Of a DNA stretch of 64,000 nucleotides, positions 25,184 to 58,079 are shown one piece after another. This DNA is from Escherichia coli O127:H6 str. E2348/69 (GTDB lineage Bacteria; Pseudomonadota; Gammaproteobacteria; Enterobacterales; Enterobacteriaceae): NCBI RefSeq assembly GCF_000026545.1, contig NC_011601.1; one strand, 5' to 3'. Under the pieces are notes generated by a model. That model was given only the letters and a program-made list of their open reading frames with translations. It was not told the DNA's origin and made no database searches. Within the stretch, counting starts at the first letter, position 1, and each line of letters opens with the position of its first letter. The position numbers and the translations under genes were made by a program.

Positions 25184-25786
<603 letters not shown>

Positions 25787-26809
25787 CTATAATTTTTACA
25801 GGTACATTCAGTTTCTTTAGTAAATCGGAAGTAAATAAGATACGTAGCACATATCAATATAGGTTAAACGAGATTAAGTTTTAATTATTTCGATTAGGTT
25901 TAAATTTATGTTTTTTTCCTGATGAGTGTCAATATGTGAACAGAAAATGAATTCCATGGTTAAGTCAATATTTACAAAAAATGAAAATATTGCTTTTTTG
26001 ATAAGAAGAAAAAGACATTCAGTTTCATAAGGTTATTGGCAATATAACGTTCAATTCTTACTTGCATTTTATATTAGCCAGGAACTTTGCCCTGAGGTGT
26101 TAGGAATAGTCTTAATGTGTTGTGTAATGGACTAGTAAAAAAACAAGTTTAAATGATAAGAAATAGAATATAAAACTATCATGAGTCATCATTAAAGATG
26201 ATTTGCCAATCAGTAAGGTGTTTTAATGGATTAACATGCCGCACAAAATGGTTATGGGTGTTCATCCCAATAAGTGATGAAAAATTAAACAGGTGTAAGT
26301 ACGTCATCTGTCCGGTAAGCCCCCTAAGAGCCAAATTAAGTGAAGTTAAACGAAGACTGCCAGTTGTCACAGGAACGATGGCCTCTTTGCCAGGGCACTG
26401 CATTCAGTCATCTGTGCGTGTTACTCTAACTGGCACTCGAACGTCGGCGATGGGGTTACCGATGGATCTGGCCGTTCCTGTGGCGTAAACGTTTTTATGT
26501 CAGTACCAACAGATTTACCACATTTATCATCTTAACAGTTTGAGTGTAAATGCAGGCTGCGTCGCAAAGGGAGGAAACTGAGTGGCGTGTTCAGTCTAAA
26601 ATAGAGTTGATGCCAGCATACAGGGCGCAGCTGGTCAACAAGTCAACATTAATATAATGGAATATTCGGAGAGAAACGTCAGGCAGTTGACCTTAAATGA
26701 ACAGGAAGATACATCCCCAGGAAAATTAATGCTGGTGTAATAAATACACCAACATTAATCCGGTCTGATTATTAATCAGACAAATATCGTTAATTCGTCG
26801 AATTTTAAA

Positions 26810-26950
26810 TCAACGTTTTTTCTTACGACCCTGAACGGCCTTAAAACGTGGATTAGATTTACAAATCACATACAGCCGTCCTTTTCGCTTCACAATCTGA
26901 CAGTCTGGATGGCGTTCTTTTGCGGTACGCAGAGAGTTAAGGACTTTCAT
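26810..26950 (-). CDS. ykgO: Ribosomal protein L36 paralog (zinc-independent)
   Basis: Hand-translated 46 aa [46 protein letters not shown] (too short for the ORF track); start overlaps the ykgM stop. Confidence 0.85.
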
Positions 26951-27213
26951 CATGCCCCCTTTTTCGTGCTAACAAAACGACCAAAACGTTGGGTGAACCG
27001 TGCAACATTTCCTTCTGATGCCACTGTTCTCAGCTTCCCTGTATAGAACGGGTGCGATTTCGAAGAGACATCAATTGTTACGTACGGATACGTTACGCCA
27101 TCCAGCTCAATCTCACGGTCTGTTTTGATAGTCGAGCCGATTTTAAAGTACTCATCAACGCTGGTGTCGTGGAACACCACAGTACGATACTCAGGATGGA
27201 TATTGGGTTTCAT
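26950..27213 (-). CDS. ykgM: Ribosomal protein L31 type B paralog (zinc-independent)
   Basis: '[60 protein letters not shown]'; no CxxC zinc ribbon. Confidence 0.9.
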
Positions 27214-27223
27214 CATTTTTACC

Positions 27224-27242
27224 TGTTATGTTATAACATAAC
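27224..27242. promoter_or_regulatory. Zur box (zinc uptake regulator operator) upstream of ykgM-ykgO
   Basis: TGTTATGTTATAACATAAC; the inner 18 nt GTTATGTTATAACATAAC is a perfect palindrome, ~10 bp upstream of the ykgM start. Confidence 0.7.
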
Positions 27243-27577
27243 CGTAAAGATACATGCTCATCCGGATCATTTCAACACCCAATCACTGTGACTATTTGTG
27301 GGATGTGGAATTTCCGCAACGGGGAAGTCTGGCATTGTTAGCAGCCATTGGCGACGCTCCCATAAACGCCTGGATGAGTGATTGATGATGGTTTCGCTGA
27401 GAGTATGGATTTTTCGAGAATGGAGGCTATCTCCACTTTACTGGCCGATGATTTATTGCAGCATGATTGATTACCTGACAATGTGTATTCCTCTCCCACG
27501 GATATAATAATTACTTACAAAAAAGGGAGAGGATGCATATTTTAAATATCACTGAAGTGAACAGTTTATTGCCGTTA

Positions 27578-27679
27578 TTAATAGAAATGGAGAAATAAAT
27601 AGGCGTATTCTACAATTGCGACAAAAACAACGATATTAATCAGTTTATGACTGATTTGCTGTACTTTATTCTCTTTCAT
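27578..27679 (-). CDS. ykgR: Small membrane protein YkgR (33 aa)
   Basis: Hand-translated MKENKVQQISHKLINIVVFVAIVEYAYLFLHFY*; one hydrophobic helix. Confidence 0.6.
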   Translation of the reverse strand: MKENKVQQISHKLINIVVFVAIVEYAYLFLHFY

Positions 27680-28151
27680 TGGTACTTCCTCGCTTTAAAA
27701 AAGAGTGCACTTCGTAAGTGCCCTTATATAAATAACGAGTTTGGTCAACCAATTTTTTGACATGTATCACAAATTTGAATAGATGTATTACATCGGCTAT
27801 CTTTTATTGCCCCAACGTCATTGATATATGTCGCCTGAAATCAGTTACGGGAATGAGTCTGATCTCAAGACTGGCCCAGTCCTGGCGTTGATTGGCGCTG
27901 AGGAGCATATCGCATCTCATCGTAACGTCGTATCTCCTGGGGTGTTATACAAGATATCGTTGTAGGTAACCAGGGAGAGGAATTGAGTCTATTAAACCGT
28001 CAACTATGCCGGATACATACTGGATTACACTGCTGGCACGCCTTGCGAGAGAACGTGCCGCAGTGACGGGTTAATTATCTGAAAGAATTTGCGAGGCTGT
28101 ATCGGTTATTCATTGATTTGATAGTTTTACTCTCGGGAGAGTAATCGATAT

Positions 28152-29294
28152 TTAATCCATTAACGGAAACCAGCCAGTTCCTTTCGATGCCTGAATTTGA
28201 TCCCATAGTTTATCCGGAATGGTTAATTCAGGAATGTGTTGTGGATTAAGGGCTGTTTGAATTTCATGACTTCTACCTGATTCAGCTAAAGTCACCCATT
28301 CTGGATTTATCACCAGCCCTTTACCGATCGCAACAAGTGGCAGGCCAGCGGAAATTGCTTCTTGAGCCTGAGACGGTGTGCGTATTTTACCTGCGGCGAT
28401 TACCGGCACTCTGCCTGCAATATGATTTAAAATCAATTCAATAGTTCGGGGGCCATTTGGCGACTCAACAGGGTAGCTATCGTTAATACTGACCAGCGAG
28501 GTATGTATATACGAAATACCGGATGAAATGAGCCGATCAAGGAGTTTATAAGTATCCTCTATCCGCAGTCCCCCTGTTACAGATTCTTCAGGAGATATTC
28601 TGTAACCGATAGCAAAGGGCTTTGTCGCATATTCATAGACTACATTTTTTACTTCCTGTAATACGGCCAGCGGGAAGCGCATACGTCCTTCAAGATCTCC
28701 TCCCCATCGGTCATTACGCTGGTTAAATAGAGGGGAGAAGAAATTCTGCAGAAGGAATCCGTGCGCACCATGAAGTTCAACGCCATCAAAACCTGCTTTA
28801 ATCGCCCTTTTTGTGACATCTCCGAATGCTCTAATGGTTTCCTGAATTTCGTTTTCAGTCATTTCCCTGCTTTGTACCACTCTCTTCATAAAGTCACCAG
28901 ATTTTACGCTTGATGCGCTGGCACTAATAACATCGTTATTTGGCACAAGCTCCGGGATGGCTTTATTACCGGCGTGGAAAATCTGTAAAATAGCCGGAGC
29001 ACCGCCACTTTTTGCTGCAGCTGCTAACTTTTCAAGGCTGTTAATGAAACGGTCGTCATACGCGGCAAATTCATGAGTAAACCCAATGCCGCTTGGCGTG
29101 ACATAGGTGCATCCTGTTATTACTAAACCAACATTTTGTGAGCGACGTTTATAAAATTCGAGTTCTTGCTCAGAGATGGTTCCATCAGGATTAGCTGACC
29201 AGGTTGTCATAGGAGCCATAACGATACGATTACGTAGCTTTATTTTTTCTGTCAGCATAAAAGGAGAAAACAATGATGGGTGTTTATTTGTCAT
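28152..29294 (-). CDS. NADH:flavin oxidoreductase (Old Yellow Enzyme family)
   Basis: 380 aa; OYE-like 'RIVMAPMTTWSANPDGT...GFDGVELHGAHGFLLQNFFSPLFNQRNDRWGG' TIM-barrel motifs. Confidence 0.8.
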   Translation of the reverse strand: MTNKHPSLFSPFMLTEKIKLRNRIVMAPMTTWSANPDGTISEQELEFYKRRSQNVGLVITGCTYVTPSGIGFTHEFAAYDDRFINSLEKLAAAAKSGGAPAILQIFHAGNKAIPELVPNNDVISASASSVKSGDFMKRVVQSREMTENEIQETIRAFGDVTKRAIKAGFDGVELHGAHGFLLQNFFSPLFNQRNDRWGGDLEGRMRFPLAVLQEVKNVVYEYATKPFAIGYRISPEESVTGGLRIEDTYKLLDRLISSGISYIHTSLVSINDSYPVESPNGPRTIELILNHIAGRVPVIAAGKIRTPSQAQEAISAGLPLVAIGKGLVINPEWVTLAESGRSHEIQTALNPQHIPELTIPDKLWDQIQASKGTGWFPLMD

Positions 29295-35025: not shown

Positions 35026-38000
35026 ATGTCACGTTATAAAACAGGTCATAAACAACCACGATTTCGTTATTCAGTTCTGGCCCGCTGCGTGGCGTGGACA
35101 AATATCTCTGTTCAGGTTCTTTTTCCACTCGCTGTCACCTTTACCCCAGTAATGGCGGCACGTGCGCAGCATGCGGTTCAGCCACGGTTGAGCATGGGAA
35201 ATACTACGGTAACTGCTGATAATAACGTGGAGAAAAATGTCGCGTCGTTTGCCGCAAATGCCGGGACATTTTTAAGCAGTCAGCCAGATAGCGATGCGAC
35301 ACGTAATTTTATTACCGGAATGGCCACCGCTAAAGCTAACCAGGAAATTCAGGAGTGGCTCGGGAAATATGGTACAGCGCGCGTCAAACTGAATGTCGAT
35401 AAAGATTTCTCGCTGAAGGACTCTTCGCTGGAAATGCTTTATCCGATTTATGATACACCGACAAATATGTTGTTCACTCAGGGGGCAATACATCGTACCG
35501 ACGATCGTACTCAGTCAAATATTGGTTTTGGCTGGCGTCATTTTTCAGAAAATGACTGGATGGCGGGGGTGAATACTTTTATCGATCATGATTTATCCCG
35601 TAGTCATACCCGCATTGGTGTTGGTGCGGAATACTGGCGTGATTATTTGAAACTGAGCGCCAATGGTTATATCCGGGCTTCTGGCTGGAAAAAATCGCCG
35701 GATGTTGAGGATTATCAGGAACGCCCGGCGAATGGCTGGGATATTCGTGCTGAGGGCTATTTACCTGCCTGGCCGCAGCTTGGCGCAAGCCTGATGTATG
35801 AACAGTATTATGGCGATGAAGTCGGGCTGTTTGGTAAAGATAAACGCCAGAAAGATCCACATGCGATTACCGCTGAAGTGAATTACACGCCAGTGCCTCT
35901 TCTGACCCTGAGTGCCGGGCATAAGCAGGGCAAGAGTGGTGAGAATGACACTCGCTTTGGCCTGGAAGTTAATTATCGGATTGGCGAACCTCTGGAAAAA
36001 CAACTCGATACAGACAGCATTCGCGAGCGTCGAATGTTGGCAGGCAGCCGCTATGACCTGGTTGAGCGTAATAACAATATCGTTCTTGAGTATCGCAAAT
36101 CTGAAGTGATCCGTATTGCTCTGCCTGAGCGTATTGAAGGCAAGGGCGGCCAGACGGTTTCCCTGGGGCTTGTGGTCAGCAAAGCAACTCACGGTCTGAA
36201 AAATGTGCAATGGGAAGCGCCGTCTTTGCTGGCCGCAGGCGGAAAAATTACGGGGCAGGGCAATCAGTGGCAAGTGACGCTCCCGGCTTATCAGGCAGGC
36301 AAAGACAATTATTATGCGATTTCAGCGATTGCCTACGATAACAAAGGCAATGCCTCGAAACGTGTGCAGACAGAAGTGGTTATTAGCGGAGCTGGTATGA
36401 GCGCCGATCGTACGGCGTTAACGCTTGACGGTCAGAGCCGTATTCAAATGCTTGCTAACGGTAATGAGCAAAAGCCGTTGGTGCTGTCTCTGCGCGACGC
36501 CGAGGGGCAGCCAGTCACGGGCATGAAAGATCAGATCAAGACTGAACTAACCTTCAAACCGGCTGGAAATATTGTGACTCGTACCCTGAAGGCCACTAAA
36601 TCACAGGCAAAGCCAACACTGGGTGAGTTCACCGAAACTGAAGCAGGGGTGTATCAGTCTGTCTTTACTACCGGAACGCAGTCAGGTGAGGCAACGATTA
36701 CTGTTAGCGTTGATGACATGAGCAAAACTGTCACTGCAGAACTGCGGGCCACGATGATGAATGTGGCAAACTCCACCCTGAGCGCTAACGAGCCGTCAGG
36801 TGATGTGGTTGCTGATGGTCGGCAAGCCTACACGCTGACACTGACAGCGGTGGACTCCGAGGGTAATCCGGTGACGGGAGAAGCCAGCCGCCTGCGACTT
36901 GTTCCGCAAGACACTAATGGTGTAACCGTTGGTGCCATTTCGGAAATAAAACCAGGGGGTTACAGCGCCACGGTTTCTTCGACCCGTGCCGGAAACGTTG
37001 TTGTGCGTGTCTTCAGCGAGCAGTATCAGCTGGGCACATTACAACAAACGCTGAAGTTTGTTGCCGGGCCGCTTGATGCAGCACATTCGTCCATCACCCT
37101 GAATCCTGATAAACCGGTGGTTGGCGGTACAGTTACGGCAATCTGGACGGCAAAAGATGCTAATGACAACCCTGTAACTGGCCTCAATCCGGATGCACCG
37201 TCATTATCGGGCGCAGCTGCTGCTGGTTCTACGGCATCAGGCTGGACGGATAATGGCGACGGGACCTGGACTGCGCAGATTTCTCTCGGCACTACGGCGG
37301 GTGAATTAGACGTTATGCCGAAGCTCAATGGGCAGGACGCGGCAGCAAATGCGGCAAAAGTAACCGTGGTGGCTGATGCATTATCTTCAAACCAGTCGAA
37401 AGTCTCTGTCGCAGAAGATCACGTAAAAGCCGGTGAAAGCACAACCGTAACGCTGGTGGCGAAAGATGCGCATGGCAACGCTATCAGTGGTCTTTCGTTG
37501 TCGGCAAGTTTGACGGGGACCGCCTCTGAAGGGGCGACCGTTTCCAGTTGGACCGAAAAAGGTGACGGTTCCTATGTTGCTACGTTAACTACAGGCGGAA
37601 AGACGGGCGAGCTTCGTGTCATGCCGCTCTTCAACGGCCAGCCTGCAGCCACCGAAGCCGCGCAGCTGACTGTTATTGCCGGAGAGATGTCATCAGCGAA
37701 CTCTACGCTTGTTGCGGACAATAAAACTCCAACGGTTAAAACGACGACGGAACTCACCTTCACCGTGAAGGATGCGTACGGGAATCCGGTCACCGGGCTG
37801 AAGCCAGATGCACCAGTGTTTAGTGGTGCCGCCAGCACGGGGAGTGAGCGTCCTTCAGCAGGAAACTGGACAGAGAAAGGTAATGGGGTCTACGTGTCGA
37901 CCTTAACGCTGGGATCTGCCGCGGGTCAGTTGTCTGTGATGCCGCGAGTGAACGGCCAAAATGCCGTTGCTCAGCCACTGGTGCTGAATGTTGCAGGTGA

Positions 38001-39276
38001 CGCATCTAAGGCTGAGATTCGTGATATGACAGTGAAGGTTAATAACCAACTGGCTAATGGACAGTCTGCTAACCAGATAACCCTGACCGTCGTGGACAGC
38101 TATGGTAACCCGTTGCAGGGGCAAGAAGTTACGCTGACTTTACCGCAGGGTGTGACCAGCAAGACGGGGAATACAGTAACAACCAATGCGGCAGGGAAAG
38201 TGGACATTGAGCTTATGTCAACGGTTGCAGGGGAACTTGAGATCGAGGCCTCGGTGAAAAACTCTCAGAAGACGGTCAAGGTGAAATTCAAGGCGGATTT
38301 CAGTACCGGTCAGGCGAGCCTGGAGGTAGACGCCGCTGCTCAAAAAGTGGCAAACGGCAAAGATGCCTTTACGCTGACGGCAACGGTTAAGGATCAATAC
38401 GGCAACCTTCTTCCTGGCGCTGTGGTCGTCTTTAATCTGCCTCGGGGCGTCAAACCGCTTGCAGACGGTAATATCATGGTGAACGCCGACAAGGAGGGTA
38501 AAGCGGAACTGAAAGTGGGTTCCGTGACTGCCGGAACCTATGAGATCACGGCGTCAGCAGGAAATGACCAGCCTTCGAATGCGCAGTCTGTAACGTTTGT
38601 GGCTGATAAGACTACGGCGACCATCTCCAGTATTGAGGTGATTGGCAACCGTGCAGTGGCGGACGGCAAAACCAAACAGACGTATAAAGTTACGGTGACT
38701 GATGCCAATAACAACCTGCTGAAAGATAGCGAAGTGACGCTGACTGCCAGCCCGGAAAATTTAGTTCTGACTCCCAATGGGACGGCGACAACGAATGAGC
38801 AAGGGCAGGCTATTTTCACCGCCACGACCACTGTCGCAGCGACATATACACTCACGGCGAAAGTGGAACAGGCCGACGGTCAGGAATCGACGAAAACTGC
38901 CGAATCTAAATTCGTCGCGGATGATAAAAACGCGGTGCTCGCTGCATCTCCAGAGCGTGTAGATTCTCTGGTGGCGGACGGGAAGACTACTGCAACACTG
39001 ACGGTTACTCTGATGTCGGGTGTCAACCCCGTAGGAGGAACCATGTGGGTCGACATTGAGGCTCCGGAAGGGGTGACAGAGGCGGATTATCAGTTCCTGC
39101 CGTCGAAAAATGACCATTTCGCGAGCGGGAAAATCACGCGTACATTTAGTACCAACAAGCCAGGTACATACACATTCACATTCAACTCTTTGACATATGG
39201 AGGGTATGAAATGAAACCAGTGACTGTGACAATTAACGCCGTTCCTGCAGATACTGAAGGCGCTGAGGAGAAATAA
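35026..39276 (+). CDS. eaeH: Intimin/invasin-like adhesin EaeH (FdeC), full length
   Basis: 1416 aa; N-terminal 'MSRYKTGHKQPRFRYSVLARCVAWTNISVQVLFPLAVTF', inverse-autotransporter-like region, then many Thr/Val-rich Ig-like repeats. Confidence 0.85.
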   Translation: MSRYKTGHKQPRFRYSVLARCVAWTNISVQVLFPLAVTFTPVMAARAQHAVQPRLSMGNTTVTADNNVEKNVASFAANAGTFLSSQPDSDATRNFITGMATAKANQEIQEWLGKYGTARVKLNVDKDFSLKDSSLEMLYPIYDTPTNMLFTQGAIHRTDDRTQSNIGFGWRHFSENDWMAGVNTFIDHDLSRSHTRIGVGAEYWRDYLKLSANGYIRASGWKKSPDVEDYQERPANGWDIRAEGYLPAWPQLGASLMYEQYYGDEVGLFGKDKRQKDPHAITAEVNYTPVPLLTLSAGHKQGKSGENDTRFGLEVNYRIGEPLEKQLDTDSIRERRMLAGSRYDLVERNNNIVLEYRKSEVIRIALPERIEGKGGQTVSLGLVVSKATHGLKNVQWEAPSLLAAGGKITGQGNQWQVTLPAYQAGKDNYYAISAIAYDNKGNASKRVQTEVVISGAGMSADRTALTLDGQSRIQMLANGNEQKPLVLSLRDAEGQPVTGMKDQIKTELTFKPAGNIVTRTLKATKSQAKPTLGEFTETEAGVYQSVFTTGTQSGEATITVSVDDMSKTVTAELRATMMNVANSTLSANEPSGDVVADGRQAYTLTLTAVDSEGNPVTGEASRLRLVPQDTNGVTVGAISEIKPGGYSATVSSTRAGNVVVRVFSEQYQLGTLQQTLKFVAGPLDAAHSSITLNPDKPVVGGTVTAIWTAKDANDNPVTGLNPDAPSLSGAAAAGSTASGWTDNGDGTWTAQISLGTTAGELDVMPKLNGQDAAANAAKVTVVADALSSNQSKVSVAEDHVKAGESTTVTLVAKDAHGNAISGLSLSASLTGTASEGATVSSWTEKGDGSYVATLTTGGKTGELRVMPLFNGQPAATEAAQLTVIAGEMSSANSTLVADNKTPTVKTTTELTFTVKDAYGNPVTGLKPDAPVFSGAASTGSERPSAGNWTEKGNGVYVSTLTLGSAAGQLSVMPRVNGQNAVAQPLVLNVAGDASKAEIRDMTVKVNNQLANGQSANQITLTVVDSYGNPLQGQEVTLTLPQGVTSKTGNTVTTNAAGKVDIELMSTVAGELEIEASVKNSQKTVKVKFKADFSTGQASLEVDAAAQKVANGKDAFTLTATVKDQYGNLLPGAVVVFNLPRGVKPLADGNIMVNADKEGKAELKVGSVTAGTYEITASAGNDQPSNAQSVTFVADKTTATISSIEVIGNRAVADGKTKQTYKVTVTDANNNLLKDSEVTLTASPENLVLTPNGTATTNEQGQAIFTATTTVAATYTLTAKVEQADGQESTKTAESKFVADDKNAVLAASPERVDSLVADGKTTATLTVTLMSGVNPVGGTMWVDIEAPEGVTEADYQFLPSKNDHFASGKITRTFSTNKPGTYTFTFNSLTYGGYEMKPVTVTINAVPADTEGAEEK

Positions 39277-42376: not shown

Positions 42377-42484
42377 ATAAAATACCATCAATGAAGTGAT
42401 TAAGAAGTTATAAAGTAACAGGGAATTAATAAGATTCTTTTCTCTGAGACGCCAGAATATTTGTTCTGGCGTCTGATTTTGAGT

Positions 42485-57146: not shown

Positions 57147-58079
57147 TTAATTCTCCCGATGCAGTAAATCCTGATAGATCCCCGTTAATATGCCATTTGG
57201 CGCAAATTGTTTTTTAATCCACTGCGTCACCTGACCGGTGGCAGAGTGCTGGGTTGCGAGTAACATGCGTGAATCCTGGCGCGGGTTATGGATTTGTCGG
57301 GTAACCAGCAAGGATTGCGCCATCGCCTCACGGACCATGTAATCCGGCAAAAAACCAATTCCTTCACCTAAAATCTGGCACTGACATTTGGTGTTGAAAT
57401 CGGGCACCAGAATCGATTCCTGCCCATGCAGCAACCAGCCTACTTTTTTATTAATCGTATGCGCGGTGTCCTCCACCATGATATTAGGGTAGAGACGCAG
57501 CTGGCTTTCGGCGATCGGCTCCGGCACAAAGGCTAATGGGTGATCCGGGGCGATGGCAAAAGCCCAGCGAATCGCGCCAATCTCCGTGTAATCAATGCCG
57601 CCACCGTCCAGCAGCGTGTCGGGTGCGCCGATAGCGATATTTGCCTGATTATTAATAATCGCATCCCAGACGCCGTTATACACTTCGGTGGTGACGGTAA
57701 TCTGGCAGGTAGGAAACTGCTTTTTCAGCACCTGTAATAAGCGTGCGGTGTGTTTGGGCGTATAAAGCAGCTGATTAATACAAATTCGCACACGCGCTTC
57801 TATGCCCTGCGAAATAGTATCGATACTGCGTTTAATGGCATGAAAATCATTCAGCAGGTCGGTAGCTTTGCGGAAAAAATAACGCCCGGACTCCGTTAAC
57901 TCAATGCTGCGGGTACTGCGAGTGAACAGCACCACATCCAGCCCCGTCTCCATACGTTTAATGGTGTAGCTAATGGCGGAAGTGGTTAAACCCAACTCTT
58001 CTGCGGCTTTACTGAAGCTGCCAAAACGCGCAGCGGTAGTAAATGCCAACAGATTCTCTTCGGTAAAAATTGAGTTCAT
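57147..58079 (-). CDS. yahB: LysR-family transcriptional regulator YahB
   Basis: 'MNSIFTEENLLAFTTAARFGSFSKAAEELGLTTSAISYTIKRMETGL'; 310 aa. Confidence 0.85.
   Translation of the reverse strand: MNSIFTEENLLAFTTAARFGSFSKAAEELGLTTSAISYTIKRMETGLDVVLFTRSTRSIELTESGRYFFRKATDLLNDFHAIKRSIDTISQGIEARVRICINQLLYTPKHTARLLQVLKKQFPTCQITVTTEVYNGVWDAIINNQANIAIGAPDTLLDGGGIDYTEIGAIRWAFAIAPDHPLAFVPEPIAESQLRLYPNIMVEDTAHTINKKVGWLLHGQESILVPDFNTKCQCQILGEGIGFLPDYMVREAMAQSLLVTRQIHNPRQDSRMLLATQHSATGQVTQWIKKQFAPNGILTGIYQDLLHREN

Follow-up and report, generated by a model that had tools for sequence, protein, structure and literature searches.

The locus examined here raises a question of regulation, namely whether the perfect palindrome that precedes the gene of a small ribosomal protein is an operator for the repressor Zur and, if so, which of the neighboring genes belong to the unit that it controls. 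The window, by which we mean the whole 64-kb stretch of DNA that was analyzed, is E. coli chromosome, and over positions 26700..27800 it shows 100% identity with numerous complete E. coli chromosomes, including that of Nissle 1917; in a megablast search, this stretch was matched in 5,086 of the 5,426 complete E. coli genomes. The remaining 340 genomes had no megablast match to the 1.1-kb sequence, which extends from ykgL to ykgR, and 14 of its matching places among the complete E. coli genomes are on plasmids. The coordinates of ykgO, ykgM, and ykgR given below were obtained by projecting onto the window the RefSeq annotation of a genome whose sequence is identical here, and the list of open reading frames (ORFs) contains the same frames. 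The locus is the well-studied E. coli ykgMO operon (l31p-l36p), that is, the same locus as the K-12 operon described previously (Gilston et al. 2014, PMC4219657; Rasmussen et al. 2022, PMC9825181), and the operon, its operator, the binding of two dimers, the link between symmetry and tightest binding, and the zinc-sparing role of the products have all been published already. With the ykgMO operon and its Zur operator already known in full, the analysis carries little weight as a discovery; its value is that of a positive control, in which the genes, their one-base overlap, and the operator were placed correctly from the sequence alone.

The genes themselves can be identified with little ambiguity, and all three are encoded on the minus strand: ykgO (26810..26950) specifies the type B, zinc-sparing form of ribosomal protein L36 (46 amino acids), ykgM (26950..27213) the type B, zinc-free (C-) form of ribosomal protein L31 (87 amino acids), and ykgR (27578..27679) a small membrane protein of 33 amino acids. 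The identities that an earlier note on this DNA had put forward (L31 type B, an L36 paralog, and YkgR) agree with the RefSeq annotation, and all three proteins score above the curated NCBIfam cut-offs, with YkgM reaching 122.8 bits against the type B L31 model NF002462 (cut-off 86), YkgO 90.9 bits against the type B L36 model NF002021 (cut-off 70), and YkgR 78.1 bits against NF041474 (cut-off 40). The one-nucleotide overlap claimed for ykgM and ykgO is likewise correct, the stop codon of the former (TGA, 26952..26950) and the start codon of the latter (ATG, 26950..26948) having base 26950 in common in the sequence TGATG. In the ORF list, ykgO and ykgM each begin one in-frame ATG codon further upstream than annotated, and initiation of ykgO at this earlier ATG would lengthen the overlap to 4 nt.

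The description of the products as zinc-sparing can be followed at the level of individual residues. YkgM contains no cysteines at all, and its alignment with K-12 RpmE places T, V, S, and S at the positions of the zinc-binding residues C16, C18, C37, and C40, respectively. When YkgO is aligned with K-12 RpmJ, C11 is replaced by H and H33 by F, C14 and C27 are retained, and the complete C-C-C-H zinc site of L36 is absent. The same pattern extends to the orthologues, cysteines being absent from 77 of 79 YkgM proteins and exactly two of them being present in each of 79 YkgO proteins. Going by these residues, the term zinc-free would appear less obvious for L36B than for L31B, as YkgO retains two cysteines and carries a histidine at a third ligand position. 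In ribosomes, L31B and L36B take the place of the zinc-binding L31 and L36, and L31B represses the translation of rpmE (PMC9825181).

The perfect palindrome that had been reported ahead of ykgM is present as GTTATGTTATAACATAAC, 18 bp in length, at 27225..27242 (no strand assigned), and 11 nt lie between its end and the annotated ykgM ATG. It occurs once in the window, where it is the longest perfect palindrome in 64 kb and the sole one with arms of at least 8 bases; the second longest is GATTATTAATAATC, of 14 bp, at 57647..57660. Symmetry alone is not beyond chance and is weak evidence of function: at least one 18-bp perfect palindrome was found in 29% of first-order Markov simulations of 64 kb. 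This frequency lends some substance to the idea that the element is a chance symmetry of AT-rich DNA, or a generic site for nucleoid proteins, with no specific regulatory role, an idea with which the flagging of the ykgM-ykgR spacer as H-NS bound (PMC3946193) is also consistent. What is needed, then, is evidence that bears on the bases of the palindrome and on its position.

Such evidence comes first from a Zur matrix of 20 columns, which was built from the K-12 znuC, zinT, and pliG operators and their reverse complements, with the ykgM operator excluded; the training operators were gel-shift-tested in PMC4219657, zinT and pliG within the listed probes and znuC on a PCR product. The earlier note had itself proposed a check against experimentally derived Zur sites as the means of refuting the Zur reading, a poor score being the adverse outcome, and when this check was run, the ykgM site scored 24.5 bits in the leave-one-out matrix, which is not poor, the training sites themselves scoring 25.6-27.8 bits. 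The matrix scan detected no further Zur site above background in the 64 kb, the next best score being 12.6 bits at 42401..42420, and in 200 shuffled 64-kb windows the best score in each was 12.7±2.4 bits, with a largest value of 19.7, the ykgM site thus exceeding the best score of the shuffles by about 5 sd. A score of 24.5 bits on a matrix from which the site had been left out contradicts the idea of chance symmetry.

Published descriptions of Zur sites lead to the same place. The 20-mer at 27224..27243 departs from the published IUPAC pattern for Zur, TGWNAYRWTATAWYRTNWCA, at a single position (19 of 20 match), and every other site in the window has at least 3 mismatches. Read through the published two-dimer model, the palindrome consists of two overlapping 13-bp dimer sites, each conforming to GTTATnnnATAAC, offset by 5 bp and located at 27242..27230 on the promoter side and at 27237..27225 on the ATG side, and a direct reading of GTTATGTTA followed by TAACATAAC agrees with the two-dimer skeleton RNNNYRNNRYNNYRNNNY (PMC4219657) at all 8 of its 8 purine/pyrimidine positions. 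An older 23-bp gamma-proteobacterial consensus, GAAATGTTATAWTATAACATTTC, was also tried and fits the operator at just 16-17 of 23 positions; this consensus is centered on one dimer site, off the two-dimer dyad, and the structure-based 18/20-bp model is therefore the better description of the operator.

The same comparisons bear on the possibility that the palindrome belongs to some other regulator of the Fur family, for example the iron sensor Fur, and not to Zur. The boxes of this family are AT-rich inverted repeats, and half-sites of the ATAAC type are common to them and to the palindrome; the 19-bp Fur consensus GATAATGATAATCATTATC, however, is matched at no more than 10 of its 19 positions, and the Fur-box reading was rejected on this count. 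Moreover, PMC4219657 states that the Fur box lacks the central TATA contacted by Tyr45 of Zur, and the regulation of ykgM measured there is zur-dependent. We consider assignment to another member of the family to be exceedingly improbable and proceed with Zur.

The second line of evidence is conservation. A YkgM scan with one genome per species yielded 80 loci from Enterobacterales, Vibrio, and Pseudoalteromonas, and in 79 of the 80 species a site scoring at least 15 bits in the leave-one-out matrix lies close upstream of ykgM, at a box-to-ATG distance of 9-18 nt in almost all species and of up to 29 nt at most. In an ungapped, box-anchored alignment, a column of the 20-bp box carries on average 1.54 bits of information, and the columns of the 80 nt upstream carry 0.06-0.4. 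Of the 80 aligned sequences, 75 have a TAnnnT hexamer that stops 2-3 nt short of the 20-mer box and is itself preceded, at a distance of about 17 nt, by TTGnnn, and ykgO follows ykgM in 79 of the 80 loci at a gap of -4 to +18 nt, including 16 loci with the one-base overlap. A similar site that is held at the same position in nearly every species while its flanks are unconserved is not what chance symmetry would produce, and both gel shift and in vivo repression have been published for the same DNA (K-12, 46/47 bases). Thus, the match to the Zur matrix and the conserved position across species take GTTATGTTATAACATAAC beyond chance, which its symmetry by itself does not, and we attach next to no probability to a palindrome devoid of a specific regulatory role.

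The symmetry nevertheless deserves attention in its own right, as the earlier note had called the operator unusually symmetrical, and this is correct: all 9 of its 9 pairs of positions are symmetric, compared with 6/9 in znuC, 5/9 in zinT, and 5/9 in pliG, and the orthologous operators attain perfect 18-bp symmetry in just 5 of the 80 loci, those of E. albertii, a divergent E. coli lineage, Samsonia, and two Brenneria. In the divergent E. coli lineage (L007), the operator is a perfect palindrome of 20 bp, TGTTATGTTATAACATAACA. One of the loci with a perfect 18-bp box, that of Brenneria sp. 4F2 (L076), yielded no L36-like ORF after ykgM. The unusual symmetry of the ykgM operator was already published by Gilston et al. 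2014 (PMC4219657), whose 18-bp inverted-repeat scoring ranks the operators in the order L31p > ZinT ~ ZnuC >> PliG. Across Enterobacterales, the promoter-side 15 nt of the box (TGTTATGTTATAACA, gene strand) are nearly invariant, and the last five bases on the ATG side vary (AAACA, ATACA, TATTA, and others); with the promoter-side dimer site close to fixed and the outer half-site on the ATG side drifting, perfect operator symmetry is the exception in this order. The cross-species comparison is a small addition, and it bears on the published proposal that Zur-regulated genes are released in an order set by the symmetry of their operators. Lineages might conceivably set the timing of ykgMO release during zinc starvation by adjusting the second dimer's outer half-site, and the Escherichia palindrome might in addition serve as a 5'-terminal mRNA hairpin, a speculation that we put forward as an unlikely one.

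The operator is embedded in a recognizable promoter. On the minus strand, a -35 hexamer TTGAAA (27270..27275) and a -10 hexamer TATCTT (27247..27252) are separated by a 17-nt spacer, as indicated by a consensus scan, by the cross-species alignment, and by the listing of TTGAAA-17-TATCTT for ykgMO among the RpoD-holoenzyme promoters obtained by genomic SELEX (PMC3946193). A gap of 4 nt separates the -10 hexamer from the palindrome. The short leader that connects the operator to the start codon reads AGGTAAAAATG on the gene strand (27214..27224, minus strand), and AGGT, located 7 nt before the annotated ykgM ATG, resembles a Shine-Dalgarno sequence and presumably acts as one. Transcription of ykgMO is predicted to start at about 27240, in which case the palindrome would occupy approximately -2 to +16. 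A terminator scan found no intrinsic terminator downstream of ykgO. An inverted repeat, GTCTGATTATTAATCAGAC, follows the ykgO stop codon after about 30 nt (26763..26781) and overlaps the 3' end of ykgL, and a T-run is absent after it on both strands.

Experiments published for K-12 were made on DNA that is almost identical to this sequence. The K-12 operon and that of the window have the identical 18-bp palindrome, the same promoter hexamers, the same ykgR-ykgM-ykgO order, and the same one-base overlap, and a single base, 27244, which lies between the -10 hexamer and the box, is substituted. The same 18 bp also occur in the gel-shift probe Cy5-L31P (Table S2, PMC4219657), the native part of which corresponds to 27212..27258 at 46 of 47 bases; the single mismatch is again position 27244 (g in the window, a in K-12), within the 4-nt stretch that separates the -10 hexamer from the palindrome. 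For the K-12 L31p operator, the apparent Kd is 0.025x10^-18 M^2, which is tighter than that of any of the other three E. coli operators, and ykgM is derepressed 560-fold in a zur deletion strain; the footprint of Zur is given as about 30 bp (PMC4219657). The operator assignment draws on the matrix, the published patterns, the identity with K-12, and the gel-shift probe.

Taken as a whole, these observations leave us highly confident that ykgMO is a zinc-repressed operon, controlled by two cooperative Zur dimers at the palindrome and derepressed on zinc shortage; the reading of the locus as a Zur-regulated operon of zinc-sparing ribosomal paralogs is supported, and every element of the original interpretation held. 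The contribution of the present work to this conclusion consists of the gene identities, the operator sequence with its matrix score, the promoter hexamers, and the cross-species architecture, and the Zur binding, the extent of repression, the replacement of proteins in the ribosome, and the repression of rpmE come from the literature, with binding and repression by Zur having been measured in K-12. Under zinc sufficiency, two zinc-loaded Zur dimers would bind 27225..27242 cooperatively, one at each GTTATnnnATAAC element, and since the operator follows the -10 hexamer by only 4 nt, the expected transcription start would be covered. A Zur footprint of about 30 bp would extend over both the -10 region and the start, and the bound repressor would presumably keep RNA polymerase off the promoter by occlusion. 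Once zinc is exhausted, Zur would leave the DNA, and a leader of about 27 nt would be transcribed together with ykgM and ykgO as one message, in which the TGATG overlap would be compatible with coupled translation. L31B and L36B would then replace the zinc-binding L31 and L36 in ribosomes, with L31B additionally repressing the translation of rpmE.

The predicted start at about 27240 has a further consequence, in that the message would carry the complete palindrome at its 5' end, where the element might also act as a terminal RNA hairpin that influences message stability, tunes translation, or provides a site for autoregulation by L31B. The palindrome RNA folds into a stem of 7 bp with a 4-nt loop (-5.8 kcal/mol, centroid structure), and a hairpin in the leader RNA of rpmE is, from the literature, a known target of L31B. 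The fold is, however, no better than that of shuffled sequences (z = -0.55; 52 of 200 shuffles equal or surpass it), and in most species the ATG-side arm has changed without compensation in the other arm, a pattern that would be expected of a protein-binding site rather than of a stem. The rpmE element, furthermore, is a long asymmetric stem-loop within a leader of four stem-loops, unlike the 18-nt hairpin of ykgM, and a comparison of the ykgM leader with the rpmE leader hairpin revealed no apparent resemblance. An Rfam scan of 25700..28300 at a permissive E-value recognized no known RNA element in the ykgR-ykgM spacer or leader; its lone match, to folP RNA, scored 20 bits against a gathering score of 99 and was dismissed as chance. 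A role for the palindrome in RNA is in our judgment unlikely, and its role as the DNA operator of Zur is the one that we retain.

Where the regulated unit ends on its upstream side depends on ykgR. The earlier note had placed a 33-codon membrane ORF, ykgR, just upstream of the operon, and its length, its family, and its upstream position all stand, whereas the word "just" has to be read against a gap of 364 nt (27214..27577) between ykgR and ykgM. The translation of YkgR contains one hydrophobic segment, INIVVFVAIVEYAYLFLHF, and the protein is a small membrane protein that cross-links to the signal recognition particle (PMC7549839). Because ykgR is on the same strand as ykgM, and because a terminator scan of the interval between the two found no terminator-like site, it might be asked whether ykgR shares the Zur-controlled transcript with ykgM and ykgO. 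Yet the ykgMO promoter and operator both lie downstream of ykgR, ykgR is listed as a separate unit in PMC3946193, and the matrix scan found no Zur-like site above background near ykgR. The species comparison points the same way: ykgR is not upstream of ykgM in 78 of the 80 species that retain the box and ykgMO, and the two loci in which it is are both from Escherichia. A shared transcript is very unlikely in our estimation; with a promoter between ykgR and ykgM, and with ykgR upstream solely in two Escherichia loci, ykgR is a neighbor outside the conserved Zur-controlled unit. Further upstream still, about 28 nt before the ykgR start codon, a terminator-like hairpin, GCACTTACGAAGTGC followed by ACTCTTTTTT, is found at 27707..27721 on the minus strand, and this hairpin could either terminate transcription of the flavin oxidoreductase gene upstream or belong to the ykgR leader.

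The arrangement has counterparts both in other bacteria and among the E. coli operators of Zur. Zur-repressed zinc-free ribosomal paralogues occur elsewhere, for example B. subtilis ytiA/rpmEB, where a cysteine-less paralogue replaces the zinc-binding protein under zinc starvation; the logic is that of ykgMO, whereas the gene organization and the operator sequence differ. The B. subtilis system has a Zur box of the Gram-positive 9-1-9 type, which PMC4219657 mentions. Within E. coli, the znuA/znuCB operator, whose DNA was crystallized in the (Zur2)2-DNA complexes 4MTD and 4MTE, resembles the ykgM operator in having the two-dimer skeleton RNNNYRNNRYNNYRNNNY and the central TATA, and its binding is cooperative and all-or-none (PMC4219657). 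It differs from the ykgM operator in that 6/9 rather than 9/9 of its pairs are symmetric, its published affinity is about 300-fold weaker, repression by Zur amounts to 6.6-fold for znuC as against 560-fold for ykgM (PMC4219657), and it serves divergent promoters.

The surroundings of the operon add a few observations that concern the history of the neighborhood. On the downstream side, ykgL (26550..26775, plus strand) converges on ykgO; the annotation of Nissle 1917, whose sequence is identical here, treats it as a pseudogene with a frameshift, two short ORFs (26550..26657 and 26657..26740) represent it in the window, and K-12 has an intact copy. Upstream of ykgR, an intact gene for a 380-aa NADH-dependent flavin oxidoreductase of the Old Yellow Enzyme type occupies 28152..29294 on the minus strand, whereas K-12 has only a 90-nt ykgP remnant in its place. 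At some distance, an ORF of 1416 aa (35026..39276) is intact and is annotated fdeC in the near-identical Nissle genome, whereas K-12 carries the eaeH pseudogene and IS3 at that location. From the ykgP remnant together with eaeH/IS3, it follows that K-12 has undergone a deletion and an insertion in this neighborhood.
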